A stretch of DNA of 62,642 nucleotides, filler included, from Stramenopiles sp. TOSAG23-2 (Eukaryota): assembly GCA_900128395.1 (NCBI GenBank). It is 11 parts of 11 records of this genome, joined end to end, with 100 filler letters (N's around TTAATTAATTAA, not from the genome) between each part and the next. Parts side by side here need not be neighbours in the genome. Positions count along the whole stretch, not along the records: positions 16,194 to 24,171 come from LT650252.1; 10 more parts are not named here. One strand, given 5' to 3'. A program made the position numbers and the translations under genes. This document shows, piece after piece, positions 1,678-58,085 of the stretch. The notes beneath the pieces are model-generated. The model had not been told where the DNA came from and searched no databases. It saw nothing but the letters and a program-made list of their open reading frames with translations. Numbering within the stretch: position 1 is the first letter of the stretch; each line of letters begins with the position of its first letter.

Positions 1678-3213
1678 TTAATACTCCACGCCATATTTTG
1701 CACGGTATGCTTCAATACTTGGTAAAAAATTTGACATTTCATCACTTGATTTAGCATATGATAATAAATCATCTAGACGTACTACATTTAATACAGGAAT
1801 ATCATATTGTTCTTGTACTGTCTGTATTGCTGATTGTGTACTTGTATCATTAACTTTTTCTTGTCGATCCAAGGCAATTATTACACCACTTGCAGTTCCT
1901 CCACCAGCATTTAACATCGTCATAGCTTCACGTATTGCTGTACCAGCAGTTATTACATCATCGATAATCAAAACTTTTTTACCTTTAATTGGTGCACCAA
2001 CTAATTTACCACCTTCGCCATGATCTTTTTTTTCTTTACGATTATATGCATATGGAATATCCATACCATAATCACATAATGCAATAGATACAGCGCTGGC
2101 AAGGGTAATACCTTTATATGCCGGGCCAAATAAAACATCAAACTTTACGCCACTGTTTACTATCACTTTTGCATAATATTCCCCTACACGTTTTAATGCT
2201 AGGCCAGAGTTAAATAATCCAGCATTAAAAAAATATGGAGATATTCTACCACTTTTCAATGTAAATTCGCCAAATTTTAATACTTTACATTTCAATGCAA
2301 ATTGTATAAATTCTGTTTGGTACTTTTGTAAACTACTGGTCTTACTATCGTTATTATTGTTATTCAATAATGCAAGACTTTTCTCTCTTGCTTCATTAAT
2401 ATCTTTATTCAATTTTTCTGCTGCTTCTTTTGGATTTTCAGCACGTGAAATACCACGTGATACCGGTACTAATAATCCCATACCATCCGATTTTCGCAAA
2501 CCAGCAGTAACCGCCTCTACTAAATTACCGCCCTGTGCCCCGATTCCAGGCGCTAATATCCAAAGTCCAGGTGCAGCTGCACGTACACGTGTCAACGCAT
2601 TGACATCCGTAGCACCAACAACAACACCTACGTTATCTTTTGTATTCCATGATTCACAAAGTGAAGCAACGCATTCAAACACTGCGTTCCCGTTGTTTAA
2701 AATGCATTCTTGCAAATCTTTGGAGCTAGGATTCGATGTTTTACATATCACAAAAGCACCTTTTGAGCCATCTTTAATAAATGGATTAATTGATTCTGAA
2801 CCCATATATGGACTTAATGTAACAGCATCTGCTTTTAAGGATTCATATGCAGCATCTGCATATGCCGTTGCAGTAGAACCAATATCACCGCGTTTTATAT
2901 CTAATAAAACAGGAATTTCATCGGGTACATATTGAATTAATTTTTCCAACGCTTCAACGCCGCTTCCTCCAAATGCCTCAAAAAAGGCGGCATTGGGTTT
3001 GTATGACACAGCAATATGTTTCGTTTGATCCACAATATTTTTACAAAAGGTAAATGCACCATTGGCAGTCACATCTCCTAATTTTTCCAAATCAATACGA
3101 TGTGGGTCTAAACCAACACATAATAATGAATTCACTTCGTTACAACGTTTTGTTAATCTTGTAAAAAATGATGCTGTTGATGTATCATTGTTCTCACTTG
3201 CAATGTTAGACAT
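1678..3213 (-). CDS. UMPS: Bifunctional UMP synthase with reversed domain order (OMP decarboxylase N-terminal, orotate phosphoribosyltransferase C-terminal)
   Basis: OMPDC motifs LCVGLDP, YKPNAAFF, LDIKRGDIGST, LAPGIGAQGG, VPVSRGI. OPRT motifs FGEFTLKSGRISPYFFN, GPAYKGI, YNRKEKKDHGEGG, LIIDDVITAGTA. Confidence 0.96.
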   Translation of the reverse strand: MSNIASENNDTSTASFFTRLTKRCNEVNSLLCVGLDPHRIDLEKLGDVTANGAFTFCKNIVDQTKHIAVSYKPNAAFFEAFGGSGVEALEKLIQYVPDEIPVLLDIKRGDIGSTATAYADAAYESLKADAVTLSPYMGSESINPFIKDGSKGAFVICKTSNPSSKDLQECILNNGNAVFECVASLCESWNTKDNVGVVVGATDVNALTRVRAAAPGLWILAPGIGAQGGNLVEAVTAGLRKSDGMGLLVPVSRGISRAENPKEAAEKLNKDINEAREKSLALLNNNNNDSKTSSLQKYQTEFIQFALKCKVLKFGEFTLKSGRISPYFFNAGLFNSGLALKRVGEYYAKVIVNSGVKFDVLFGPAYKGITLASAVSIALCDYGMDIPYAYNRKEKKDHGEGGKLVGAPIKGKKVLIIDDVITAGTAIREAMTMLNAGGGTASGVIIALDRQEKVNDTSTQSAIQTVQEQYDIPVLNVVRLDDLLSYAKSSDEMSNFLPSIEAYRAKYGVEY

Positions 3214-14718: not shown

Positions 14719-15765
14719 TCATATTAACTGGTCCTTTTCGATTTCTGCTATTAACTTTTTATGCAAATCATCAACCTCTGGTCGTAATGTTGGCCCTTGG
14801 ATGACAATGCAACCGCCATCATTCAATACAAAGATCTCGCCAACTTTAACCTTGACGATTTCATTGATTTTTTTGGATAATGGATATATCCGAACATCGT
14901 CATCTTCAAAGACTACATCGTCAAATTGGTGAAGAGCTTCACGCCATACCCGCATTTGGCCATTCCAATTCCGATTACTAAGTGCTTGTGTATGATCAGG
15001 TGTCCTTGGGTGAGCTTTATAATCACCATTACGTTTATTCTTTGGTATCAATTTTATATAATTGAAATACCCTTTCGTATCTTTCCCTAGATTTATTTGT
15101 TTCTTCCGTTGTTGTATTTTTTTCGGATCTGTCAATTTTTGTTGATCGACAAACATATCTCCTGTCCCTTTTGCTTCAACTTTATATTTCACACGTTTAT
15201 CAACGATTCCGTTTCTATTTGCTCCATTTGGATGCTCAAATTTACATTTTATATTAAAGCATTTATCACCGTACGTGCATAGGCGTGGTGACGTCGCTCT
15301 TTGATTATTGCGGGTGTTGTTGCTGCTATTTTTATTGTGATAGTTATTTCCTTTTTGAGAGTTATTGACAAAATTATTCTTCTTATAACTATAATTATTA
15401 TTGCGGGTATTATTATTATTATTATTATTATTATTGTTATTATTATTATTATTATTATTGTTATTATTATCATGACTATAGCGGCTTCCTCCTCTATTAT
15501 AAACATATGAAGACACGCTGTTATTGCAATTTCTTCCGATACTTTGATTATAGCTTTCATTAAACAAATTATGTTGTGGCGGCAGAGGTTGGCGGTATTG
15601 ACGACTATTATTGTTATTGTTGTAATTATTATTATTATTATATAATGATTGATGATTATTGCGATGGTAATAATTAGCAACGCGATTTCTTTTCTGTGGG
15701 TAATTTACATTGTTGTCATTACTGTAATTGTCACCCCATTCTGGGCGTCTTCTTTTATTTGACAT
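14719..15765 (-). CDS. SLBP: Histone mRNA stem-loop binding protein (SLBP RNA-binding domain) with a CCCH zinc finger and Asn-rich N-terminus
   Basis: QQRKKQINLGKDTKGYFNY..IPKNKR..HPRTPD..SNRNWNGQMRVWREALHQFD matches the SLBP RBD consensus (RRQKQIxYGKxTxGY..HPxTP..SxRxWDxQIxxWRxxLHxWD). CTYGDKCFNIKCKFEHP is a CCCH finger. Confidence 0.87.
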   Translation of the reverse strand: MSNKRRRPEWGDNYSNDNNVNYPQKRNRVANYYHRNNHQSLYNNNNNYNNNNNSRQYRQPLPPQHNLFNESYNQSIGRNCNNSVSSYVYNRGGSRYSHDNNNNNNNNNNNNNNNNNNNNTRNNNYSYKKNNFVNNSQKGNNYHNKNSSNNTRNNQRATSPRLCTYGDKCFNIKCKFEHPNGANRNGIVDKRVKYKVEAKGTGDMFVDQQKLTDPKKIQQRKKQINLGKDTKGYFNYIKLIPKNKRNGDYKAHPRTPDHTQALSNRNWNGQMRVWREALHQFDDVVFEDDDVRIYPLSKKINEIVKVKVGEIFVLNDGGCIVIQGPTLRPEVDDLHKKLIAEIEKDQLI

Positions 15766-16193
15766 GTTGGCTGGTTTATCTTCTATATTCTACTTTCTAG
15801 TTAACATCATATATATTTATATATCTATATTTTGTATTTTTTGTTATTTGATTTTTATTTTTTATTTGAAATTCCCATCATAATTTCAATACCTACAGTA
15901 CCTGGTATGATGGCCAAACACGCTAAAAAAAAATGATTTGCTAATTATTAATATTACTAGGGATCTAGCAGGTGTAATATTTCAAGTGCCTTTTTTTTAA
16001 AAGTTGCACACAGTCAATACGAATTTAGAGAGCCCAAAACGAAAAAAAAAAAAAAATAAATAAAATATATTGCGATAGGTAGATAAATAAAAGNNNNNNN
16101 NNNNNNNNNNNNNNNNNNNNNNNNNNNNNNNNNNNNNTTAATTAATTAANNNNNNNNNNNNNNNNNNNNNNNNNNNNNNNNNNNNNNNNNNNN

Positions 16194-16948
16194 CTACCTA
16201 TCAAATCTTTAGCATCGCCAACTACCCATTGTGGATATTCAAAATCTGCCCTTGCTATCGTTTTGAACAACAATGCCATCGTCGGTTGATCAAATGGTAA
16301 ATAACCCACTAAAAATACATATAAAATAACGCCACATGACCATGTATCTGCTTTGTAACCATCATATCCTTTATCTGCTAATACTTCCGGTGCAACATAA
16401 TTTGGTGTGCCACACGTTGTATGTAAAAGTTCTTTCATTCCACCTTCCATTTCATCTGCCCCTGCTAAATTCATTGCTGATAAGCCAAAATCAGAAATCT
16501 TCAAGTTATCACTGTCGTCTAATAGCAAATTTTCAGGCTTTAGGTCACGATGGGCGACACCTTGCTTGTGGCAATACAATACACCACTGACTAGTTGGAA
16601 GAAATATTTCCGTGCTTCGTCTTCCGAAAACTTGCCAGCATCAACAATTTTATCAAAAAGTTCGCCCCCAGTAACTAGTTCCAATACAATAAAGATTTTA
16701 GAACTGCTAGCTAAAACTTCCACTAAATTGCATACATTTGGATGATTGACTAACTTCATAATCGATATTTCTTTTTTAATTTGAGAACCCATATTTTGTT
16801 GTTGCAATTTAGCTTTGGATAATATTTTAACAGCAACTTTATCACCTGTTTCAATATCTGTGCCTAATTGTACTTTTCCAAATGTACCTTCCCCCAACAA
16901 TTTTCCTAACTCATATTTACCAACGGTTTTCTTCTTTTTCCTCGGCAT
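16194..16948 (-). CDS. CIPK: CBL-interacting (CIPK/SnRK3-like) Ser/Thr kinase, 3' partial
   Basis: VGKYELGKLLGEGTFGKV, QIKKEISIMKLVNHPNV, HRDLKPENLLLD, DFGLSA, LHTTCGTPNYVAPEVL..KGYDG..AD.WSCGVILYV. The diagnostic NAF motif would lie beyond the contig end, so CIPK versus another SnRK is not proven. Confidence 0.78.
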
Positions 16949-17025
16949 ATTTGTATTTTTACATTTCCTAACTCATATTTACCAACGGTTTTCTTCTTTT
17001 TCCTCGGCATATTTGTATTCTTACA
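16902..17025. repeat. Tandem duplication, 62-bp unit, spanning the kinase start codon
   Basis: 16902-16963 vs 16964-17025, with one mismatch. Confidence 0.9.
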
Positions 17026-18115
17026 TACACGCGTTATATATAAATTTATATATAGATTTATACATGTATATACTTTCTTGTTTAAGTATATATCCTATTT
17101 CAACAAATGGATCTATCCATTCATTTTTTTTTTAGTTGTTATGGGCACATGGATATTTTTTTATTTGTGCAAACCACCAGCAAACTGGCAAACCATCATC
17201 AGCAAAGCACCAAAATAACACATAGGTGTTAGTGTGCCTGCCCAGCCTGGTGTGCACAACAAAAAATGCATCAAAAAATATAAATAATAAAATGTCAATA
17301 TCATTTCCCTATCAAGTTGTATACATGTATAGTAGTAGGTATGCGAATGTAATTTAGTAAAAAAGTGGAATTTTTGCGTTTTCGCAGGGAGAACCACGAG
17401 GCTAAGGGATCGAGTAGTGTTCCTCTTTGTTGCAATTCTAGAATTTTATTTTCATAAATTAAAACTATTTATTATTGATTAAAACTAACCATGAACATGG
17501 CACAAATGTAAATGGAAAGTGCCCTCCCTCTGAGGACTTGAGTGAACTTTGAGCTCTCCTCGTACCAAATTATAGCAACTATAGCACTATATACCATTTT
17601 AATTTGTACATAATACCTTTATTCTAGAATTATGCAAAAACTCCATCAATCTAAATCTAGACTAACTCATGCCAGCATGGCTTCTTCCTTTGTTTCATCC
17701 AAAAATATTGAACCAACCTCTCTCTCTTGGTGGATTGTATTTACCAGAATAAAAGTATCATCCGGATATCCGGCTTAGGACACCCCGGAGCAGCCTGGTC
17801 CAGCAGCCTGGTCCGGCATCCCGGAAGAACACGCTACCATAGTCATAGCACGGGAACCAAAACAAGATTCCGGAAATCATCCCACATTTATCCAATGCCT
17901 TGAGCTTAGCACGGGCATAGCAGGCAAATCTCCAAATCATTAATTCCGATCGTTTGCGAACGTGCCCAGCTTGATAGCAGAGTTTCCGTCTTAATTTGTA
18001 CTTATTTTTGTATACCTGAATAAAAGGATCAAAGCCTGCTATGCAATGCTATGGGTCCTTAAGGACCAAACCATTTCAAAGTGTCACGAAAATCGAAAAA
18101 CCAGTGCATTGATAG

Positions 18116-21085
18116 ATGACCACTAAAAGTATGAGCCAAGCAACTAAGAATCATTTAAGACAATGTTGTGAGCCTGTTAATTACAAAACAGTATCGACAA
18201 TATTTTCCAGCACCACTGCACAAACGCCATACTGTCTTGATCTTGACGACGACGAGCTTCAACTAATCTCGTCCACTCGCAAAACCGTTTTCTTGAAGAA
18301 AGCCAAGACAGCAACGGGCCATCAATTTGTCGCATCAGGCAGCCCAACACCTGGAAAAACCAATTCCTTCAAGGACGACGCTATGCTTTTATATTTGAAA
18401 ACATTTACAACCAAAGGCAAAGCATGGAAAGATCCTGAACTACCAAAGACAACCTCGCCGGAAGAGGTTGCTGTGATTCGCGAAGGAACGCAGCTCGCTA
18501 TTTTTTACGATGGCGGTGTAGCGTATGTCTCGGACTTTGCTGTCGATGCAAAATTTAGGGCACCAATTCGTAGACTAGCAAAGTCCATGGGCGTGAAAGG
18601 GCACGTGCGTGTCAGCCGAGCAATGCGTGCTTTGCTTTTGAAGGAAGTAAGGCATTTTCCGGCAAAGCGTACAAGGGTTCCAGTCTACTTGTTATCTGAA
18701 TATTGTGAAATCATTAACAAGATCGAAACAAAGCTTCTGCCAATATGCTATAAAACATTTTTGTTCGATGCAAATAACTTTTTTTCACGCGAACAAAGAA
18801 AGTTGGCAGATGATGACCAAAAAGCTAGCTTGGTCTGCACTTTATTTCGTGGCTACGATAGTGGGTCGACCTACGACATTGACAAACAAGACATTATCAA
18901 CAGCGCGAATGCCGCAAACAACTCCTTTTGCCTTGGCGAGCGCCTTGTGGAGGGCCGATCCGTCTCAAGGCAAGCGACGAATTTGGCAACCACTTTGGTC
19001 ATACTAGCCTACTTTGCAGGCGTGCCAGAACAAGAAAATTATGAGTCGATTCACGAGTGCCATCGGATTGCCAGGGGCACTCGTTATTTCAAAAAAGGGG
19101 ATGCGCCAGGCAAACGCGAGAACCCTATGATTATCGACGGCAACACAAAAAGCGAAGTTCAAGCTGAAGTCGTAGCGTATAGGAATAGTATCCCAACCTA
19201 TGCTGCATTGGAGCAGATAAAAAGGGACTATTCTAGGGTACCATTCGACAAGCCATACGTCAAGAAAGGCCAAAAAACAAACACCGATGCAAAATTCTTG
19301 GAAAAAATGGCAGACCCTGAAACCTACAAGCCGCTGTACCCGTTCTGGAAATTTAGAAAATCCATTTTTGGAATTCGAATCAATTCATGGCGTGAGTTTG
19401 CTTATTTAATGCTGACGGATCCGAGGGTCAAGACATGGATTCGTTTCATTATGGCTGGTTACGCAATGGCAAAAGTCTTTGCACGAGATCAGAAACCAAA
19501 GGCATTTGGCGGAGATGCGACTATTACACGCGCAACGTCCTATGAGCATGACCGCTTATTCGCGGATGTCGTGAACTACTTGCCGCCGGATATCGAGGCG
19601 CACTTCTGGCAATTATATGTATTGTATTTGATGCCAAAATGGTTTGCGACAAGGCAAATTACAGCGTTGACGCTAAACATTATTTCTATCAAGGATTTCA
19701 ATGAACGCATTGCCATCCCAAACATGAAATTGCATCACTATGTCGTTGATTTTATACGTACAGGCGCTGGGCCAATCGATTACAGAGTACGTGTGATGCA
19801 CGGTAAAAAGCGTTTCCATAACAATGGCCTTACCGTCTCAGATATCGACTATGCTGGCGAAGATCTAAAACGATACGATGGTTTACTGGAAGCTTTGCCA
19901 AGAATTTTCAAGGCGTATGAACATTTAACGGGCCATGTTGTTCGGCATGATACTTCCGAGCCGAGGCGTATGGTATCCAATAGTGTTCAAGCTATTGGGC
20001 CATATCGTGGCATGAATCGTGTCGTCAAGTATCACAAGTTTCCTTGGATGTTTCCAGCATACAAACGTGGAAACTTCAACTGCTTGGAACCACTCTTGAG
20101 CGTTCCAGGGGCCTCGGATGTATTCGTCAAACTTCCGGACAACCTTTTGGCTGGCTGGGAGAAAATCAGTCGATGGACCAAGAACAATATGTCGGAAATT
20201 GAAGAGTGCTTGTCGAAGGAAGTGGACATTTTCATCGATGCCAAGAAGTTTAAGACTGCTTTGCGACCAACGCCAAATGCAACAAAAGCGTTCAAAACAA
20301 CGTGTGCCCTGTTCCTTCCAAAACAGGACAAGCCAAGCATCGTCCCAGATACCTACGATGTATTGAACAACTTTGTGAAGCAGTGCGTCGAATCCAGCTT
20401 GAATGGGACAGCAGTCTCCCTGGATGAAAGGCACTTTGGGCGCCCGTTTCAATTTCATTACAAAGGCACGGTTTCGAATCATTTAAAACTGTGCGTAGAC
20501 AATGGAAGACTTTGTTTTGAATTCTTAGGTCGCCACGGGACTGGTGTTGTCGAAATTCAAGCCTGCAACCATTTGATTGCAGAGCTGAGAGCTTGCCACC
20601 CGGCTGTGTTGGAGCTCACGGCATTGAAGAAGAAAATTCTGGGCGAGGAAAACCATGACAACGAGATGACGGTCCTAGAAAGCTACAACCCGTTCAAGTT
20701 GCAGCACTTGCATCAATTTTCGCAAATCATGAGCGCTAGGAAGGACAAACAGGTTGACTATTCGTTGAAACAATTGCACCGATTTTCGTCGCACAAAGAC
20801 GTCTATCCAACAAAAGATTTCTTCCATAGCTTTGTCACGCCACGTGCCGCCCAAGGCGAGTTAATCGATCGTTGCAAAGACATGCGTGACATGTCCATCC
20901 AAGAGCAATCTGCAAACATTCATTACCTCTTGATATTCAAGCGGGTTTATGAAATTATGGATACGTTCCGTGGCAATGGTGCAATCTCTGGACACGCTGC
21001 CTTCGTCCAATTGCAGAAGAGCCTGGACGAGGACATCCTAGCGGCACAAAGATTGCATCGCGAAAAATTTGGCATGAGGCGCTAG
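18116..21085 (+). CDS. 989-aa intronless orphan protein in a GC-elevated island; possible degenerate tyrosine recombinase/topoisomerase IB fold at the C-terminus
   Basis: Long uninterrupted ORF. Three 60-nt lines counted by hand gave 32-52% GC, against 23% in one line of a host gene (26821-26880). No poly-Asn/poly-Thr tracts. The fold suggestion rests on motif resemblance only. Confidence 0.75.
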   Translation: MTTKSMSQATKNHLRQCCEPVNYKTVSTIFSSTTAQTPYCLDLDDDELQLISSTRKTVFLKKAKTATGHQFVASGSPTPGKTNSFKDDAMLLYLKTFTTKGKAWKDPELPKTTSPEEVAVIREGTQLAIFYDGGVAYVSDFAVDAKFRAPIRRLAKSMGVKGHVRVSRAMRALLLKEVRHFPAKRTRVPVYLLSEYCEIINKIETKLLPICYKTFLFDANNFFSREQRKLADDDQKASLVCTLFRGYDSGSTYDIDKQDIINSANAANNSFCLGERLVEGRSVSRQATNLATTLVILAYFAGVPEQENYESIHECHRIARGTRYFKKGDAPGKRENPMIIDGNTKSEVQAEVVAYRNSIPTYAALEQIKRDYSRVPFDKPYVKKGQKTNTDAKFLEKMADPETYKPLYPFWKFRKSIFGIRINSWREFAYLMLTDPRVKTWIRFIMAGYAMAKVFARDQKPKAFGGDATITRATSYEHDRLFADVVNYLPPDIEAHFWQLYVLYLMPKWFATRQITALTLNIISIKDFNERIAIPNMKLHHYVVDFIRTGAGPIDYRVRVMHGKKRFHNNGLTVSDIDYAGEDLKRYDGLLEALPRIFKAYEHLTGHVVRHDTSEPRRMVSNSVQAIGPYRGMNRVVKYHKFPWMFPAYKRGNFNCLEPLLSVPGASDVFVKLPDNLLAGWEKISRWTKNNMSEIEECLSKEVDIFIDAKKFKTALRPTPNATKAFKTTCALFLPKQDKPSIVPDTYDVLNNFVKQCVESSLNGTAVSLDERHFGRPFQFHYKGTVSNHLKLCVDNGRLCFEFLGRHGTGVVEIQACNHLIAELRACHPAVLELTALKKKILGEENHDNEMTVLESYNPFKLQHLHQFSQIMSARKDKQVDYSLKQLHRFSSHKDVYPTKDFFHSFVTPRAAQGELIDRCKDMRDMSIQEQSANIHYLLIFKRVYEIMDTFRGNGAISGHAAFVQLQKSLDEDILAAQRLHREKFGMRR

Positions 21086-21095
21086 ACGTGCGGAG

Positions 21096-21302
21096 TTGGT
21101 CGATTGGACTATCAATGTATTTCGCATGGCAAGAAATGCCAGGTTTCAACTAGTAAAGGAGGTGGAGCAGGAAATGAAGACTGCGCAACGAGTTTGGGAT
21201 GCAAAAAATTCGCCCGGGATTTGTATGACGGTGACGCATGCCGGCAAACGGGTCTTGGAAAGCATCGGGTTGTGTCCAGCGAAGCGTCATAAGCCTAGCT
21301 AG
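21096..21302 (+). CDS. Short ORF directly downstream of the 989-aa gene, in the same GC-rich island (first ATG 21126)
   Basis: Coding-like composition continues to TAG 21300-21302, where AT-rich sequence resumes. No homology recognised. Confidence 0.3.
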   Translation: MVDWTINVFRMARNARFQLVKEVEQEMKTAQRVWDAKNSPGICMTVTHAGKRVLESIGLCPAKRHKPS

Positions 21303-21715
21303 GCTCGGAGCTTTATAAAATAAAAGAGTAGACTTATATGAGAGTGTAGAACTAAAAGTAAAACTATTTAAAGAACAAAAAAATATATATTTATACAGGA
21401 GGGCTTGGCCGGTAGCTCGCACATACTATCTATAGTCTTGGTCGTTCACACAGGATAGGTACCTCTACTTGTGCACAAAGCTGCCTTGGTTCCTCTGACA
21501 TTTGGGGTTTAGAATGGCAAAGAAAGTTTTGATTACTGGCATGATGGAAATGCATATTGGTAAACAAAGATCCTGAGATCCTGGATCCAATGCATATTGC
21601 AAAAACAATTTATGGGATACAACACGCGAATGCGGCAACCGTATTGTTTAAATTCTATGTCATAAGAATGTTCTCCAACTCGTCTGCTATATCGTGCCGT
21701 CTCAAACTATTATTA

Positions 21716-24171
21716 TTAACTATTTTTCTCAAAAAATTTCTTAGTATAATAATCACTGTAATAATCAGAATAATAGGATGCATAAAAATTTGCATAATGT
21801 ATTGCTTTGGATGTTTGCGTTGTTGTTCTAGCATCGCAATATACGCAATAGCTAGATATACCTTGCGAATGGCACATGTAGCAATAATATCTTTGTTCCG
21901 GTGTTTGTGACAATGTTTCTACTAACGTTGGGCTTAATGCATGTGTTAATGCACGTGTAATTGTTTTTACTAATGCCATGGTTGATGATGTATATAATTG
22001 ATTTGGAACTATCCATATATATAAAGAAGTATAGTGTTTTTTGTATTGTTAGATATTGTATATTTTAGATCATATATGTTTGAGTTATATGCTGTGGGAG
22101 ACGTAAAAATTTATAGTAAAATGTATGGATCTATAATATATACTTACGCATGGTAGTCAACATCGTTTTCACACCATGTGTAGTTGCTATGGAAACCGTA
22201 TTGCCAATAGAATGTTCAATGGCATGAGTTAAACTAATTCTTATTGATTCCATAACTGATTCAGATAAACTATGAATTAAATGATTTGCTAATTGTGGCC
22301 TTACTTGTTCATATACTTGTGTGGCTACTTCTTCTGTCATATCAGCAACTACATCTTCATATACATGTTTTTTCAAATATGGAATCACAGTATCACTTTT
22401 ACCAAATCCTGGGGCACTGGATCCGAGCCCACCTAATATGCCACCTATTAACGTTCCAACGATGCCTATGACGACGCCCATAGCCGGGGGTAACATTTTC
22501 GTATTTGTTGTAGTTGTCATTTTCGAAGTAGTGCGGCTTAATAAGTTTCTTCTTCTTGTTGTTGGTGGTGGTGCTATTTTATTGCCAGTGGATGGAGTTT
22601 CCTTTTCTGATGATGGTGATGTTCCTTCCTTCTTAGACCTTAAAAGACGGTGCGTAAATGCAAGAAGACGTCTATTACGTCCGTGTCGCCTTCTTGATTG
22701 TGGTGAGGTGAATCCACGTCCTGTATATGGATTAAAATTGTTCCAATGCTCTCTATCCTTTGTACTAAAACCACCTTGTGGAAGCGTGTCTGGTGTCGTT
22801 ACTTTACGACTAACAAGTGACGATCCGCCTCCTGGCTGTACATTTATGAGTCTACCAAGATCTGTATTTGTATTTAGTTTCGGTTTCTGTATAAACTTTC
22901 CCTCTCTCCAATTTTTCCTATTTTCTGCTTGCAATGGGTCAAAATTTGATTGTATTTCTTGACCCACGTGGTCTCTTCCGTTTTCTAGACTAAATATACT
23001 GTCAACATCAGTATTCACACTAGGGACGGCGTAACTAACACCTATACCATTAACGTCACCATTGCTGGAAGTATGTGTGAGTTCGGCGGAGGCGCCCAAC
23101 GAAGCCTTAAATGTTTGGTGATGTGGTTGCCATTTGTCGTCGACTTTTACCATCGTTGTACCAAGGTTTCCCTTTACCGCGTTAGCAGAGAATTCAACTG
23201 AATCTTGACCTGGTGTAAACCCTCGATTCGTACCCGCTGTAATCTGCGGTCCACTGAATTCCTTGCTTTTTGTGATTTGTTGTACGTGGTTGCCGTTTTT
23301 GTTTGTAAACGAGCGAATATGCGTAGAATCAACTGTTTGGGCAGCGTGTCCCCGTATAAACCCATTTTTTCCCTGCACAGTATTTGTTTCTCGAGATGTA
23401 TATATTTTATCTCCATTCCTAGGATCAGTATTAAAAGTTTGAACAACGTCCCTCCTAAGATTATTGGGTTGTCTACGCGTGATTGATGCGCCTCCTCTGC
23501 TCGTTGTAGATGTTCTTGTTCCGCCAAATTCAGTTTGTCGTAGATATGAATCCCCGGGTTGGCTATATATATTGTCTGGTGTAAATCGTTGAGTAACCTT
23601 ATAACGTCCGTTTTCATCAACTGTTGTCACTATACCCCCATTTGCATCATATGCTGCGTTTGGTGGTAGTCCTCTATATGTTGGGGTGGGATTAGCATAG
23701 TTTTCGAGGTTAGCTTTATTTTTATTTTCGAAGCGTTTTCTTGAGCCTTGTTCAACATGACTATCCCCTTGATAATCCCATTTATCCGTATTTGGGTTGT
23801 AAGAAAAAGGTTCATCCTTTCCATCAATTTTTACAACTTTTTGATCTCCAAGCTGTGGCCCTTCCCTAACCCAACTACCCTCTTTTGTCTGTACCCATTT
23901 GTCGTCTTTCGAAACACCATATGCGTTTTGGATATCGGTTTGTTTTTGTATCTCTTGGCGTTGTTTTTGTATCTCTTGACGTTCATGAGCAAGTTGGCTT
24001 CCACGACAATTGCGGTTGGTACATCGTGGTGTTGCAGGTGAAGCTTCTTGTTCTTTTGGCGATACGTATCTACCCGATGGATTATCACGATTGTATTGAG
24101 CCTGCTGGTCAGCAAAATCGGATGCTTTCTGGCCCATTTCCCCTTTTGTAGGCGGCCGACCAGTCGACACG
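21716..24171 (-). CDS. Uncharacterised protein with C-terminal CxxC..CxxC and YYSDYYSDYY tail; 5' partial; exons 24171-22148 and 22008-21716
   Basis: Minus-strand intron GTAAGT(22147)...TAG(22009) joins ORF 22131-24170 in frame to ORF 21716-21979 (..TTM-L-PNQLYTSSTMALVKT..). RRLL-type basic sites are followed by a hydrophobic Gly-rich segment. Confidence 0.75.
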
Positions 24172-24271
24172 NNNNNNNNNNNNNNNNNNNNNNNNNNNNN
24201 NNNNNNNNNNNNNNNTTAATTAATTAANNNNNNNNNNNNNNNNNNNNNNNNNNNNNNNNNNNNNNNNNNNN

Positions 24272-25475
24272 AATAAAAACAAGATGCTAGGAAATAAATA
24301 AGCAATATCACAAATGTTAGCCAAAGAAAAACATATGTTGCTATCCAATACTCATTTGCTCTGATATGCATGCAATTTCGTCGTACGTCTTTCTGAGACA
24401 GTCCGAAGCCCCATGTATCGGGGTAATTCAAATTTGAGGCAATTTCCATACATTTTTGTCGCAATAGATCATAATCAGAAATGGATTGGCATGGCATGTT
24501 TTCATACATTTGATATTCATATAACAAGTCTCCATTTGGCCATAATTTTGTTGGAAGTTGGGCAATCTGAATCGTTGAACCAAATTGAATATTTTTTCGT
24601 AGCTTACTATCATATATATACGTTGGTTTATGATAACGCAACGTTGGATATCGTTCCACTTGTTTCGTTCCAATATTATTCATAAATGTATATAATGATA
24701 ATACATTAAAAACAAATGTTAAAAACAATAACATAGTTACATATTTGAATTTTCTTTTTGTTTTGATGGAAACCTTTGCAGTGCCACAGCAACAACATGT
24801 CCCTTCACGAGTTTCACAGCAACCAAAGCAAGATATTAATAAATATACCATGCCAACAAAGCAAAATATGAAAATAGATGATATTGCAGATTCATTCAAA
24901 GAACATTTTTGCATTGGAAACTGGCATGGTTTCATCGGATCCCTACTCACATCATCTTGCGGTTCAAATATAAAATCTTTTTCACATTCTCGTTGAGGCT
25001 TTCCGCCAATTTCTTGTCTTTCAGCATTGTTAAGGTTGTACTGGACTTCTGGATTGCAAAAACCACAATAATTACCTCCCACCCTTGTCCGTCTCAATTT
25101 GCAATTTCCGCATTTGTAATCAGGTTCAATAATTTGTCCAGCAGCTGTAAATTGATTAACACTTGCTGGTATTGCAAAACTAAAAATTAATAGTACAAAG
25201 ATGACATAAAATGGAATTATGTACGGAGATAGGAGATTAACTGGGCAAGCATTTGAGCAAGATTTGCAAGAATCTGTTTGACAACAACATTCCATATAAC
25301 AACATTCCCCTTCCTTGATTTCTCTTTTTCTTCTGCTTGCAGTTCCAGCTGCGTTTCGAACGCCATTATTGTAATTTTGTTGTTGTATTGTTTGTTGTAT
25401 TATTCGATTATTTGAATATTGTTGTTGTTGTGGTTGCTGTAATTGGCCTCTTACATTTTTTACACTATTTAACAT
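24272..25475 (-). CDS. Cys-rich multi-pass membrane protein of unknown function, 3' partial
   Basis: Four or more hydrophobic segments, with Cys clusters (CCYMECCCQTDSCKSC, CFGCC..CCCC) next to TM segments. Probable start MLNSVKN at 25475. Confidence 0.7.
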
Positions 25476-26564
25476 TATTATATTATAATTATAAATATTC
25501 AATCTATAAATATATATATATATATATATATTATATAATAATAGAATATATAATGATATGAACGGTAAATATTATTATTAAATACAATATAGCAATAATT
25601 GTGGTAGTATAATAATCCTTCTCTCTTTGTGATATGTACTATCCATATGGATCTATCTATCTATCTATATCTATCTATCACTTACACTCTTACATATCTT
25701 ATAAATATATAATATATATAACTCGCGTTTAGCCATTGTTGTGTCACGTGTTAAAGTTGACACACACAAAACGGTGTTTTTGATCCAATATTGATAGGAT
25801 TTTTTGCCATATTAAGCACACGTTTCGGTACTCTTTTCCTCATCTCGTGCACACCATTCCTTATTTTTTTAAGTTTATATAATGATATATTATTATTCAA
25901 GTTTATACTGTTTAAGTTGTAAATATAATAAAAAAGCTAGTCTTATCCCCTATCAGAGTTGTACTTAATGAAGAATTAAGAATACCAAGCGAAAAACAGA
26001 GTAATTCTAATTCTCCTCTCTCCTCATATGCCAATATAAAAAAAGATATATCTCGTGATCATCTGAAGTTATCAAAATATTTCCGAACTATACCCTATAA
26101 TTATTTCATCTTTAAGACTTGATTAAAACTACCAATTGCACAATTTCACATAAATAATGATACTATTAATCCAAATTATCATATTTTCCTATGGATATTG
26201 AAATGTATACTATATATATACTAATAAATATATTAAAATACAAAAATGACAAAACTAGAAAATGAATAAATGAATTATTTTGAGAAAAACACTTCAATAA
26301 AAAATAGAAAATATATATTTACATCAAGATATATATATACATATACATTTTAATATTATCCATAACCATTAATAATATTCACTTACGAATCACAGTGTTC
26401 TCATCATTTAATACATTTTGCACGTGCGTGTGTCTCTGTGGGTCTTAGTATCAGTTGTTTTAATTTTTTTAAATTTTTTTTCAAAATTAAAATCATCAAA
26501 AAATAACCAAATTTTCAATTTTTTTTTTTAAACACACAAGTAAAAATATTTGTAGTTAACACCA

Positions 26565-54363: not shown

Positions 54364-56432
54364 ATGAGTAATAAATTTCTAACATTAGACGAAGATGATA
54401 TTTTTGCACAACCAGAAATTACTAGGTCAAAATTAGGACTTGTTTTCGGACAGACGGTACAGTCTCATAGTTCCAAATTAGACAATATTAGTAATTTAAA
54501 TTTTGCTGATAATAAAATTCTTAAGGCTACTGGTACTAATACTTTTGAACTGATTAATATTAGTTCACATGGCACTAACGCCTTAAATTCAGATAGTGCT
54601 TTGTTAACTAGTGCTGCTTTAAGTAATTATGTGACTACTAGTGCTTTAACAACTACTCTGTCAGATTATTCTACTACCTCCAGTATAAACTCTACTTTAG
54701 CAGACTATGCTTTAACTAGTTCTGTCCCAACTAATAATAACCAATTGACCAATGGGGCTAATTTTATTACCAACACTACAGATGCTTTTTCCTACTTGAA
54801 TCTATCTGATAAACCCACTATTCCCACTAATAATAATGAACTAACTAATGGTTCTAACTTTATTACCAATACTACAGATGCCTTTTCCTATAATAACCTT
54901 AGTGGAAAACCCACTATTCCCACTAATAATAATGAACTAACTAATGGTTCTAACTTTATTACTAACACTACAGATGCTTTTTCCTATTCGAATCTATCTG
55001 ATAAACCCACCAATATCACAACTACAGATTCCGACCAAAATATTACTGGTAAAAAAACAATTCAAGATGAAATTGTGATAGACCAAAATAATTCTGGGGA
55101 ATTACAATTACATTTAAATAATGGTTTAGGACAAAATAAAATTACAAAATTAGTGGCTGTTCCACATGCATCAACTTCTTCTCCAATCACTTTATCCCTT
55201 CCATCTGTAAAAGCGGGTGCTAGTAGTGACCAGTTGGTCAGTTTAAATGCTGTCCAGACTATAACTGGAAAAACTATGGATTATAATTCCAATACATTTC
55301 AAAATTTTCCCACTCCAGAAATTACTGAATCCAGTACATCTACTTTAACAAATAAAACTATGGATTATAATTCCAATACATTTCAAAATTTTCCCACTCC
55401 AGATATTACTGCCTCCAGCACCTCCACTTTAACAAATAAAACTATGGATTATAATTCCAATACATTTCAGAATTTTCCATCAGGCGATGTGACAGCCTCG
55501 TCTACTGACACTTTTACAAATAAAACTATTAGTGGAAGCGATAACACTTTTTCCAATATTCCTTACAGCGTGTTAACAGGAACTCCTACAATCACTAATT
55601 ATGCTACAGCAAATAATACTTTTACTGGTTCACATAAAATCAATAATTATGATTTAAATAATAATGCGGAAATAGAATTTATGAGTTATTCTGCTGGTGT
55701 AAATAGTGCAGATAAATTAGTGTTGAGAAATAAAGCAGTTGGAGGTGGGGGATATTTTGCTATTCACCAAAACGATAGTGTAAATCCTGCTATTATGATT
55801 ATGGACGACACAAGTGTTTTTCTTCAAGGATTAAAAGTGGTTGGAGGAAAAGTAGGTGTAGGTGGTGTATTAGGAAATCCTGCTTATGTATTAGATTTAG
55901 AGGGGAAAATGGGTATTGAATATAATTTAGGTAATACTGCTCTATGTGCTTTTAAAAGTCTTACGACAACTTCGTATTCACAATATACAAGAGGTTTTGA
56001 ATTTCTAAATGCTAATGGAAATAGTATGATGTGTATTTTACATTATGGAACATCTTATACTGACCCTCGTGTAGGAATTGGTAGAACAAATCCATCTCAC
56101 CCATTAGATATATTTTGCCCCAGTAGTAGCGGGTGGCGTGTAGAGCGAACAGGTAAAAGTATAGACAGTAATTTAGGTATAGCAACTGGTAATTACACAT
56201 ATTTTAAACTGGGAGGAGGTAGTGTATTCCGTTCTGGTTCTGGGAGAAATAGCACCCTTGAAGGAACTTTATCTGTTAATGGTTCATCTGTTAGTAGTGA
56301 TAGACGAATAAAAAAAAATATAGTTGATGCAGATGCTAAAATAGCATTAGAAACACTAAAAAAAATTCCTTGTCGTGAATATGAATACAGAGATACAATA
56401 CATAAGTCAGGTAAAACCATAGGATTTATAGC
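54364..56432 (+). CDS. Virion fibre/spike-like protein with C-terminal peptidase S74 intramolecular chaperone, 3' partial
   Basis: S/T/N-rich. YxNLSxKPTIP and TLTNKT repeats, VGIGRTNPSHPLDI fibre repeats, and SSDRRIKKNI..ALE.LKKI...EY......GFIA (S74 signature). Confidence 0.85.
54727..55011 (+). repeat. Three 96-bp (32-aa) coding repeats in the fibre gene
   Basis: PTNNNxLTNGxNFITNTTDAFSYxNLSxKPTI starting at 54727, 54823 and 54919. Confidence 0.92.
55270..55530 (+). repeat. Three 84-bp (28-aa) coding repeats in the fibre gene
   Basis: KTMDYNSNTFQNFPxxxITxSSTxTxTN starting at 55270, 55354 and 55438. Confidence 0.92.
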
Positions 56433-58085
56433 NNNNNNNNNNNNNNNNNNNNNNNNNNNNNNNNNNNNNNNNNNNNTTAATTAATTAANNNNNNNNNNNN
56501 NNNNNNNNNNNNNNNNNNNNNNNNNNNNNNNNTGGTATTCGACATGTTGTTGTTGTTTTATTTTTCACTGGACGTCGTTTTACACGTCTACGTTTCATAT
56601 TCTTAGTATTTTGTATATAAATGATAATAATAATAATAATAATGTTTAATTAAATTGTTTAATTCTCTTTCTTTATTTATTTCTGAAGGGTAAGAGAGAA
56701 CGGGGCTTGTAGTAATATATTAAAACTCTCTCTCTATATATATATATATATTGTAGTATATTTTATAAATGAATAAGTAAGATAAAGACTTGTTAATAAA
56801 TAATATAATGCATACATCAATATGTGATGTATATATCTTATATCTACAGTACCTGTGGTGTACATCTAAGAAGCGCTACTATTATTATCCTCTTCTTTTT
56901 TTTTTTTATTATTTCAAAAAACGCCGTGGAAAAGGCGAGGACCTTCTCTGGACTCTGGACACCTTAACCTACCAGAGAGGCATTTCCTGGTGGTCCAGGG
57001 TGGTAGGGTGGTCCAAATCTACGTTTTCCTAGCGAGGACCCCTGCCCAAATTTATGTTAAAAGTATAATTTGCTTGATCAGGAAATTTAAGGAGGAATTT
57101 AAGAGCTGAAATGAAAATTCCACCAAAATTTTGACAGCTTGGGAGAGATTTTGCACATTTCATTTCTTTATTTCATTTTCGATTTGTGCATTTCCTGGAT
57201 TTATAATTTGTGTCGAAGAAAACATGCTTTTTCGTCGATTACACACACATATTGAGTTAATTTTTAAAATATTGTAGTGTCTAAGTATAATTTTAGATAG
57301 GATATTTATTGATAGGTTATTAAAATTTGTAGTGTTCAAGTAAGTTCACAAGCCTATTGTCTGCTAAACCGCATCTACTGAATTTATAAATACAGTGTTA
57401 ACAACCACACATACCGTATCCCACTATATCAATACATCAATACATGTCCCGTTTCACCACTACAGGACAGCTATGCTACGCCTATATACCTAAATCAACT
57501 TATAGTGCTATACCCAAAATCTTCCACTAAAACACAAAAACTATCGGAAGATTTTACGACAACAAATCCAACGTTTCTATACTTCTTACAATACCGTCAC
57601 CATACTATGTAGACGGTTAACAAAATTCGGCCACCTTTTTGGAAGTTTTTTAAAAAAAATAAAAAAAAATAAAAAAAAATGGCCACCTTTTAAAAAATTT
57701 CTGAAAATCGTTTACGCCTACACAGCTACTCAGCGTCCGGAAATCCTACTTAAAAACATTTTGATAGGAAAAAAGACTAGTTACAGAAGTTAATTAATCT
57801 TTACCTACCCTTTGATGTGTACACAGTCCCCTTATAATAAAATAGATATATAACATAAAATAACACTATAAAAACTTGTACATATATAATATATTCTAAG
57901 ATAAACATTATTCCTTATTTTTTATATAATTTATTTCCTTTAATTTATTTCCTTTGAAACCCCTACACATCAGGGCAGGGAAGCTNNNNNNNNNNNNNNN
58001 NNNNNNNNNNNNNNNNNNNNNNNNNNNNNTTAATTAATTAANNNNNNNNNNNNNNNNNNNNNNNNNNNNNNNNNNNNNNNNNNNN

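Follow-up and report, generated by a model that had tools for sequence, protein, structure and literature searches.

A GC-rich island in an AT-rich marine stramenopile genome: a putative tyrosine-recombinase/topoisomerase IB-like gene on a possible Crypton-like mobile unit

The window analysed here is a stretch of 62,642 nucleotides (nt) from Stramenopiles sp. TOSAG23-2 (assembly GCA_900128395.1), made up of 11 parts of 11 records joined end to end, of which positions 16,194 to 24,171 come from LT650252.1; all positions count along the whole stretch. Within this AT-rich eukaryotic DNA, an island rich in guanine and cytosine (GC) lies at 17760-21314, between a protein kinase open reading frame (ORF) on its left (16142-16948, minus strand) and a minus-strand gene on its right. 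The island holds a single long ORF, intact over 989 amino acids (aa) at 18116-21085 on the plus strand, and the predicted structure of its product, P0001, points to the superfamily of tyrosine recombinases and type IB topoisomerases (TopIB). We describe the island as a compositionally foreign stretch and putative single-gene mobile unit, based on its GC contrast and on the divergence of contigs in one run (X2, below). Its ends are approximate, at ~17756-17812 on the left and ~21314-21326 on the right.

The GC content of the island is 45.9%, compared with 31.8% for the window minus the island. Its non-coding ends are as GC-rich as its ORF (45.4%), with 46.3% at the 5' end (17760-18115) and 50.7% at the 3' end (21086-21314), and the stretches adjoining it fall to 35.8% (17500-17759) and 36.1% (21315-21569). 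When the whole 62.6 kb was scanned, the GC-richest 3.5-kb stretch was found to begin at 17751. GC at third codon positions is 0.50 for the 989-aa ORF versus 0.19-0.31 for nine other ORFs of the window. An earlier first-pass annotation of this DNA had noted a sharp shift in composition, an ORF open for 989 codons and an absence of terminal repeats, and in these respects it was right: the flanks stand at ~36%, and the island, like Cryptons (PMC3212892), is a single-gene unit without terminal repeats.

No terminal direct or inverted repeats bounding the island were found, and the longest inverted pair within it (30 nt at 73%) lies inside the ORF. Perfect palindromes are located at the left edge of the island (12 nt, 17762-17773), 49 nt upstream of the ATG (14 nt, 18054-18067) and at the right edge (14 nt, 21292-21305). 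The whole window has six perfect palindromes that contain G+C and have arms of at least 6 nt. Three of these are concentrated in only 585 bases of non-coding island DNA, with one at either edge, and we infer that the three are candidate binding or crossover sites. The other frames of the island hold only ORFs of at most 102 aa. No reverse transcriptase, cargo, capsid, replication or other gene was found in the island, and a retroelement reading was dropped because a reverse transcriptase is missing from it. No tRNA genes were found in the window, nor any Rfam family in 16200-24170 (one row, E = 0.24).

Two short collinear similarities link the AT-rich DNA left of the island (17594-17760) to an AT-rich patch in its 5' non-coding part (17986-18031), one of 26 nt at 81% (D7) and one of 19 nt at 84% (D11). 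These could be what is left of an earlier copy, or could belong to the promoter. Their use as direct repeats marking the ends of an element was considered and dropped.

The island protein belongs to a family. An exhaustive HMMER search of 1.84 billion cluster representatives yielded 42 proteins at E ≤ 0.001, 26 of them at ≤ 1e-10 and 11 at ≤ 1e-30. Seven of the 42 are near-identical fragments of the island's own gene (89-100% identity), while the rest are true relatives with 22-43% identity. Long relatives measure 896-1137 aa and align from residue ~80 to the end; the best, P0003, shares 36% identity over residues 80-986 (E = 6e-148) and P0006 reaches E = 6e-66, so the ORF is not a product of chance. 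The relatives were found in metagenome assemblies, mostly on contigs of ~3 kb, and each cluster has a single member or very few. Longer contigs carry P0003 (22.2 kb), P0047 (52.7 kb), P0015 (10.6 kb) and P0016 (8.7 kb). At the C-terminus of several relatives there is a basic, KRKR-type tail resembling a nuclear localisation signal (NLS). Two alignments were used in the following, one of 36 rows for the family (A1) and one of 13 long members (A2).

A full-length model of P0001 was built with AlphaFold2 using the 36-row family alignment, and has a mean predicted local distance difference test score (pLDDT) of 82.9, a predicted template modelling score (pTM) of 0.71 and 530 residues at pLDDT of at least 90. 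When compared by VIA-align with 48,161 representatives of the PDB, 16 of its top 17 matches were titled recombinases, integrases or topoisomerases. The recombinases and integrases among them are Cre, Tn1549 Int, a staphylococcal integrase, XerA, IntI, XerH, lambda Int (three entries), an archaeal Xer and XerD; the topoisomerases are the human, Leishmania, bacterial and variola TopIB plus another entry titled 'DNA topoisomerase'. The exception is Phi3T SroF. An independent model of residues 460-900 (pLDDT 83.2, pTM 0.82) gave the same picture, as all 14 rows with at least 146 aligned residues are of the recombinase/integrase/topoisomerase class. Unrelated structures aligned over just 38-77 residues, and every long alignment was to a recombinase or TopIB. 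The C-terminal half, which the first-pass annotation had called tyrosine-recombinase/TopIB-like, is thereby placed in that class for both models: residues 466-890 (19511-20785) are predicted to adopt the catalytic-domain fold of the superfamily. On the strength of the models, a recombinase fold of the island protein is probable, with a predicted structure that lies equally near to TopIB and to the recombinases.

Five residues of this domain form a candidate active site. These are R513 (19652-19654), candidate first catalytic Arg in a WFxxR motif, present in 14 of 15 covering rows of A1 and 9 of 9 of A2; K564 (19805-19807), candidate hairpin Lys directly after the strand 556-560 (15/16 and 9/9); R806 (20531-20533), candidate second catalytic Arg in the LGR of FLGR (18/21 and 11/11); H847 (20654-20656), candidate third-position His in an E-x-H motif, here ENH (19/21 and 10/10); and Y857 (20684-20686), candidate nucleophilic Tyr in YNPFK (21/21 and 10/10). 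All five are found in 100% of the covering A2 rows and in the canonical order. K564 follows a beta hairpin in the model, as the general-acid Lys does, and Y857 stands 10 residues after H847; within the superfamily the Tyr is located ~9-13 residues after the His or Trp. The structural alignments with the lambda Int core (1ae9_B, 177-334) and Leishmania Top1 (2b9s_A, 270-455) stop at model residues 848 and 849, and that with XerD (1a0p_A, 111-277) at 859. By the numbering of these enzymes, H847 would presumably fall on the conserved His of lambda Int and Leishmania Top1, and Y857 near the Tyr of XerD. An intact catalytic set in P0001 is probable.

This does not support the catalytically dead protein that the first-pass annotation had considered possible. 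The motifs themselves are located where it had them (R513 at 19652, FPWMFP at 20039, FLGRHG at 20522, YNPFK at 20684 and SLKQLHRF at 20762) and its box I Arg stands, as R513 is kept in every covering row of A2. Box II and the Tyr motif had been assigned to YNPFKLQH and SLKQLHRF...FFH, and this is why the His, Arg and Tyr were read as lost. YNPFKLQH instead holds Y857, the likely nucleophile, and SLKQLHRF...FFH lies further on in a module specific to the family, while R513, K564, R806, H847 and Y857 are all present and invariant in the long members. The likeness of FEFLGRHG to the FDFLGKD of TopIB does not go beyond the letters, since its place in the protein is that of the second Arg and not of the hairpin Lys.

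The remainder of the protein is as follows, all on the plus strand. Residues 1-87 are predicted to be disordered, and residues 89-206 (18380-18733) to form a small alpha/beta domain that may resemble the DNA-binding domain of Dachshund/Ski. An all-helical region covers residues 210-455 (18743-19480) according to the secondary structure of the model. Its part from ~331 to 455 may be a core-binding domain, as three structural matches begin at model residue 331/332 (human Top1 1k4s_A, SroF 9rd5_H and TelA 4f43_A). Behind the Lys hairpin and ahead of R806, the catalytic domain is interrupted by a beta-rich/helical subdomain of ~180 residues (residues ~606-785, 19931-20470, from secondary structure), for which no significant fold match was found; Foldseek rows to ribosomal chains were weak (best E = 0.06). 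Behind it the family alignments show a conserved, family-specific module at residues 889-934 (20780-20917) with R889, H893, P898, R919, E930 and Q931, and two long helices close the C-terminal end. We propose from the model that P0001 is a large nuclear-type enzyme, in which the disordered N-terminus is followed by a putative Ski/Dachshund-like DNA-binding domain, then by the helical region, the catalytic domain with its insertion and a C-terminal helical hairpin.

At the 3' end of the ORF, the C-terminal tail of the family is encoded once more at 21078-21302 (plus strand), out of frame by +1 and with its basic, NLS-like end included. It matches P0019 in BLASTP (E = 3e-08) and the A2 profile in hhalign (probability 81.5%), in columns identical to those of P0001 964-986. 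It is an old partial tandem duplication of the 3' end of the gene. With its tail duplicated and out of frame, P0001 ends ~30 residues before its relatives do. Runs X4 and X15 have an 81-nt deletion within the second tail copy. An intron joining the ORF to the out-of-frame tail was considered and rejected, as no plausible donor precedes the stop codon and an RNA-library contig is unspliced to 21090.

Sequence searches other than the HMMER search revealed little. Pfam gave nothing significant for eight long relatives (best E = 0.1) and nothing for ten fragments. Two weak leads were obtained, namely a match to Phage_int_SAM_5 at E = 0.031 in one of the 36 members and, with language-model features of residues 460-900, best matches to 'phage integrase' clusters at 0.85-0.86, below the 0.9 line. 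A phmmer search of PDB sequences returned one row at E = 0.23 only. A word-indexed search of 5.8 billion proteins returned none with P0001 and, with A2, only a fragment of the island's own gene, and the whole protein had no match in the ESM Atlas. No match was found by tblastn to phage and plasmid records, and no relative in metagenome scans with P0047 and P0001 or in a genome scan with P0016. Six single-protein queries of IMG/VR viral contigs gave no relative. Five of these were empty, and the sole match (L001) was spurious, being a chance pattern match in a methyltransferase-like ORF of a T4-like phage contig. A full-text literature search, limited in extent, found no description of such a family in marine protists. 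The family escapes Pfam and profile searches and is exposed by structure prediction only.

The stretch 17500-21500 recurs in marine and seawater metagenomes. Twenty runs from 14 studies are listed, and seven hold half or more of it; six of the listed runs are on record as RNA and hold 30-37% of its words. Run X1 holds 96% of the words, and may be the source of the window. In X2 the island forms a separate contig of 3,495 nt (17971-21465, one mismatch). In other X2 contigs, which agree with the window only from there onward, two different upstream sequences join at 17812/17813 and a third variant at 17945. One X2 contig departs from the window behind 21314, and because its right flank remains by eye similar to the window for ~10 bases more, the right end may be near 21325. 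X4, which comes from the same study as X1 and carries another organism label ('organism B'), holds 17824-21192 at ~99% identity, and its contig runs on for 774 nt unlike the window behind 21569. Sequencing depth in X2 is 440 at the repeat 21457-21502, 50 for the right flank and host gene, and 22 for the island.

Altered copies of the gene were found in metagenomes as well. In P0012 positions 18323-20889 are deleted, with a CAT microhomology at the joint rather than GT..AG. P0011 represents a 90%-identical copy that diverges after 18376, P0014 and P0054 are frameshifted, and in P0023 the stop codon is replaced, giving a read-through variant. Contigs from an oligo-dT RNA library cover 18571-21090 (~98-99% identity) and not the intergenic 16726-18321, which is compatible with transcription of the ORF and is no proof of it.

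Taken together, we consider it about an even chance (a probability of roughly 0.5) that the island is a ~3.5-kb single-gene, Crypton-like mobile unit, set between genes of a marine eukaryote whose DNA is AT-rich. We assign its protein to the tyrosine-recombinase/TopIB superfamily, where it represents a new and highly divergent family, and to no named family. By analogy, the family would most likely work like a Crypton transposase. The protein would bind sites in the non-coding ends of the element, and Y857, with the help of R513, K564, R806 and H847, would attack the DNA backbone and become joined to it through a 3'-phosphotyrosyl link. The unit would then be excised as a circle by strand exchange and would re-insert at short matching sequences.

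A more far-reaching reading is tentative, and we hold it to be somewhat doubtful: that this is the first to be described of a new superfamily of mobile elements or episomes, based on a eukaryotic tyrosine recombinase and circulating among uncultured marine protists. It includes a new architecture, in which a putative Ski/Dachshund-like domain is combined with a recombinase/TopIB core; this core lacks the usual His or Lys ahead of R806, and has both the insertion of 180 residues and the conserved module near the C-terminus. In this reading, the presence of the island at ~99% identity under two different organism labels, between unlike flanks and at a GC content 14 points above that of its host, would mean recent horizontal spread. 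DNA transposons that carry a tyrosine recombinase only are rare in eukaryotes and have so far been found in fungi, oomycetes, a diatom and animals. If real, a family of its own in marine protists that are abundant but uncultured would extend that range and provide a marker for gene flow between them. It would also contribute a site-specific recombinase that is adapted to eukaryotes, is probably nuclear and has an unusual active site, and as such is a candidate tool for genome engineering.

Several findings weigh against a mobile element driven by a recombinase. P0001 has no Pfam match at E ≤ 10, no Pfam family recurs among the 36 members, and a profile search of the PDB gave 0 matches at E ≤ 10. 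The family profile aligned by hhalign with 13 tyrosine recombinases of E. coli K-12 at probabilities of 0.8% and 0.1%, although the E. coli alignment is shallow and this null result is no evidence against the fold. Foldseek found nothing in the PDB at E ≤ 0.001 for either model, and nothing at that threshold in BFVD for the full model. The assignment of the five residues is based on order, secondary structure and alignment ends, and their convergence in space is putative. The residue three before R806 is variable: at position 803 the 12 covering rows of A2 have F, F, F, H, N, S, Y, F, F, H, Y and H, and neither the His of recombinases nor the Lys of TopIB is kept. H-x-x-R marks tyrosine recombinases and K-x-x-R, in the literature on vaccinia topoisomerase, marks TopIB, and with such a variable position the family fits neither subclass.

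At the level of the gene and the locus, the 3' end is rearranged, its tail being duplicated and out of frame. The 16 differences listed inside the ORF comprise 5 synonymous and 11 nonsynonymous changes, where 22% synonymous would be expected at random, which indicates no clear purifying selection among close copies. No second copy of the gene was found in the 62.6-kb window, and the four runs compared with it showed no joint of an empty site. The left junction (17700-17812) was without cover in these four runs, holes which prove nothing, and the right link to the host gene runs through the repeat of depth 440, such that a mis-assembled location is possible. The exact ends and target duplications of the element are approximate or candidate only. 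AATAAAAG flanks the island at 17748 and 21319, and its 14 occurrences in the window, compared with 10.6 expected, are within chance.

The alternative that survives best, unlikely as we judge it, is a fixed host gene: a horizontally acquired or domesticated recombinase or TopIB enzyme that serves the cell, for instance by relaxing, resolving or rearranging nuclear DNA, and no longer moves. In favour of such a gene, the ORF is intact and covered by contigs from poly(A)-type RNA libraries, the relatives have basic, NLS-like C-terminal tails, and the window holds no second copy, nor the compared runs an empty site. Host genes derived from Cryptons are indeed known, yet the known domesticated ones have lost the catalytic set (PMC3212892), which is kept here. 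A composition far from that of the host, in third codon positions and non-coding ends alike, also speaks against a host gene, as do the deleted, truncated and frameshifted copies, the alternative flanks in X2 and X4 and the lack of clear purifying selection among close variants (5 of 16 differences synonymous).

It is rather improbable that the island is a fragment or a complete copy of some undescribed episome or virus that infects or inhabits marine protists and uses the recombinase for integration or resolution. The ~3-kb contigs of the relatives could be such episomes, but may also be broken assemblies or transcripts. Neither IMG/VR (six queries), phage and plasmid records nor BFVD yielded a relative, and no capsid, replication or other gene accompanies the ORF in the island.

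An assembly artefact in the place of the island is very unlikely, whether as a chimeric join at repeats or as DNA of another organism in the sample. Placement at this locus rests on the assembly of the window, perhaps on X1. The uncovered left junction, the passage through the depth-440 repeat on the right and the X2 depth of 22 for the island versus 50 for its right flank speak for an artefact; the left flank 16992-17523 was likewise without cover in X2, X4 and X15, though holes in such cover prove nothing. On the other side, 96% of the words of the stretch 17500-21500 are present in X1 (possibly its source), X2 and X4 carry the island joined to 21315-21465 and 21315-21569, and the alternative flanks are AT-rich like this genome. 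Even if the island were misplaced, the gene and its family would be real. We find it equally hard to believe in a chance resemblance, where a widespread alpha/beta arrangement would make a family with another function look like recombinases, since unrelated structures align over 38-77 residues only and long alignments are all to recombinases or TopIB, five invariant residues occur in the right order and spacing, and the language-model lead agrees.

The surroundings of the island belong to a cellular genome. The window's cellular genes include a fused orotidine monophosphate (OMP) decarboxylase/phosphoribosyltransferase, a serine carboxypeptidase, a MutS domain V protein and the protein kinase. 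What the first-pass annotation listed as a gene at 21716 is the last exon (21716-21979) of a minus-strand gene that also holds a 679-aa ORF (22131-24170). An 87-aa ORF and the 679-aa ORF are exons of this one gene, as an RNA contig joins 22006 to 22148, and the interval is read as a spliceosomal GT..AG intron on the minus strand at ~22009-22147 (~139 nt). The 679-aa ORF has no Pfam match, and its GC content of 40-44% is above that of the surrounding DNA.

Beside the island a short repeat family is located at 21457-21569, overlapping the likely 3' untranslated region of the minus-strand gene. A 162-nt contig of X2 covers 21457-21502 at depth 440, and other contigs, from X2, X4 and X15, match 21477-21569 apart from ~10% differences before they continue into different sequence. 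The repeat family may be a target of the island or a companion to it. At 21549-21599, AATGCATATTG occurs twice, 40 nt apart (D16), and contigs of the repeat family are without the stretch between the copies (their loose ends lie behind 21569). This looks like a 40-nt duplication or a small insertion in the copy of the window. Upstream of the kinase gene, a 62-nt unit is tandemly duplicated at 16902-17025, its copies being 98% identical.

Elsewhere in the window, UMP synthase is encoded at 1678-3213 (minus strand) with OMP decarboxylase preceding the phosphoribosyltransferase. This inverted fusion occurs in stramenopiles and kinetoplastids, and we take it as a hint at the affiliation of the host. 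A 348-aa ORF at 14719-15765 (minus strand) has a run of 22 Asn and many further Asn, as is typical of an AT-rich protist genome. A 706-aa ORF at 54364-56484 (plus strand) ends in Peptidase_S74 ('chaperone of endosialidase', E = 2.8e-05). Domains of this type act as chaperones within their own protein, and the tail spikes of phages are their more familiar setting. Between 7998 and 61191, twenty runs of 44 N occur in pairs 12 bases apart, the pairs mostly ~8.07 kb from one another and the last four ~1.55 kb; they cut the kinase ORF and the ORF 24216-25502, and are masks and not biology.

Compared with known systems, the island protein is three times larger than Cre, XerC/D, lambda Int, Tn1549 Int or IntI, and has the 180-residue insertion in addition. 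It differs from the prokaryotic and phage tyrosine recombinases in the lack of a constant His three residues before the second Arg, in the lack of profile similarity and in its eukaryotic, probably nuclear setting. From TopIB of poxviruses and bacteria and from eukaryotic Top1 it is set apart by position 803, which is never Lys, and by the absence of a Pfam topoisomerase match. A signature of TopIB is Ser-Lys-x-x-Tyr around the catalytic Tyr, and no such motif surrounds Y857. A lone gene on a foreign island, with variant copies, is more in keeping with a mobile element than with a topoisomerase that has a housekeeping role.

Starships with their 'Captain' (DUF3435) and DIRS/Ngaro are likewise mobile elements of eukaryotes that rely on a tyrosine recombinase. 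The island would share this with them, if the fold is as predicted, but has no DUF3435 match (E ≤ 10), no cargo genes and no reverse transcriptase, and is ~3.5 kb long and not tens of kb. The comparison with Cryptons was made by their published description. The island protein has no match to DUF3504 (the Crypton-derived domain) or Phage_integrase and is without GCR1_C, and its putative Ski/Dachshund-like domain and 180-residue insertion do not feature in the available part of that description (PMC3212892). Cryptons are characterized there as recombinase-only elements of low copy number, without terminal inverted or long direct repeats and with ill-defined boundaries, short direct repeats of 4-6 bp at their termini and non-autonomous derivatives (PMC3212892). 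As far as that account goes, the island is Crypton-like in its single large putative recombinase gene, which is its sole enzyme with neither a reverse transcriptase nor a DDE transposase beside it, in ends that lack terminal inverted or long direct repeats and are hard to fix, and in the existence of a deleted derivative (PMC3212892).

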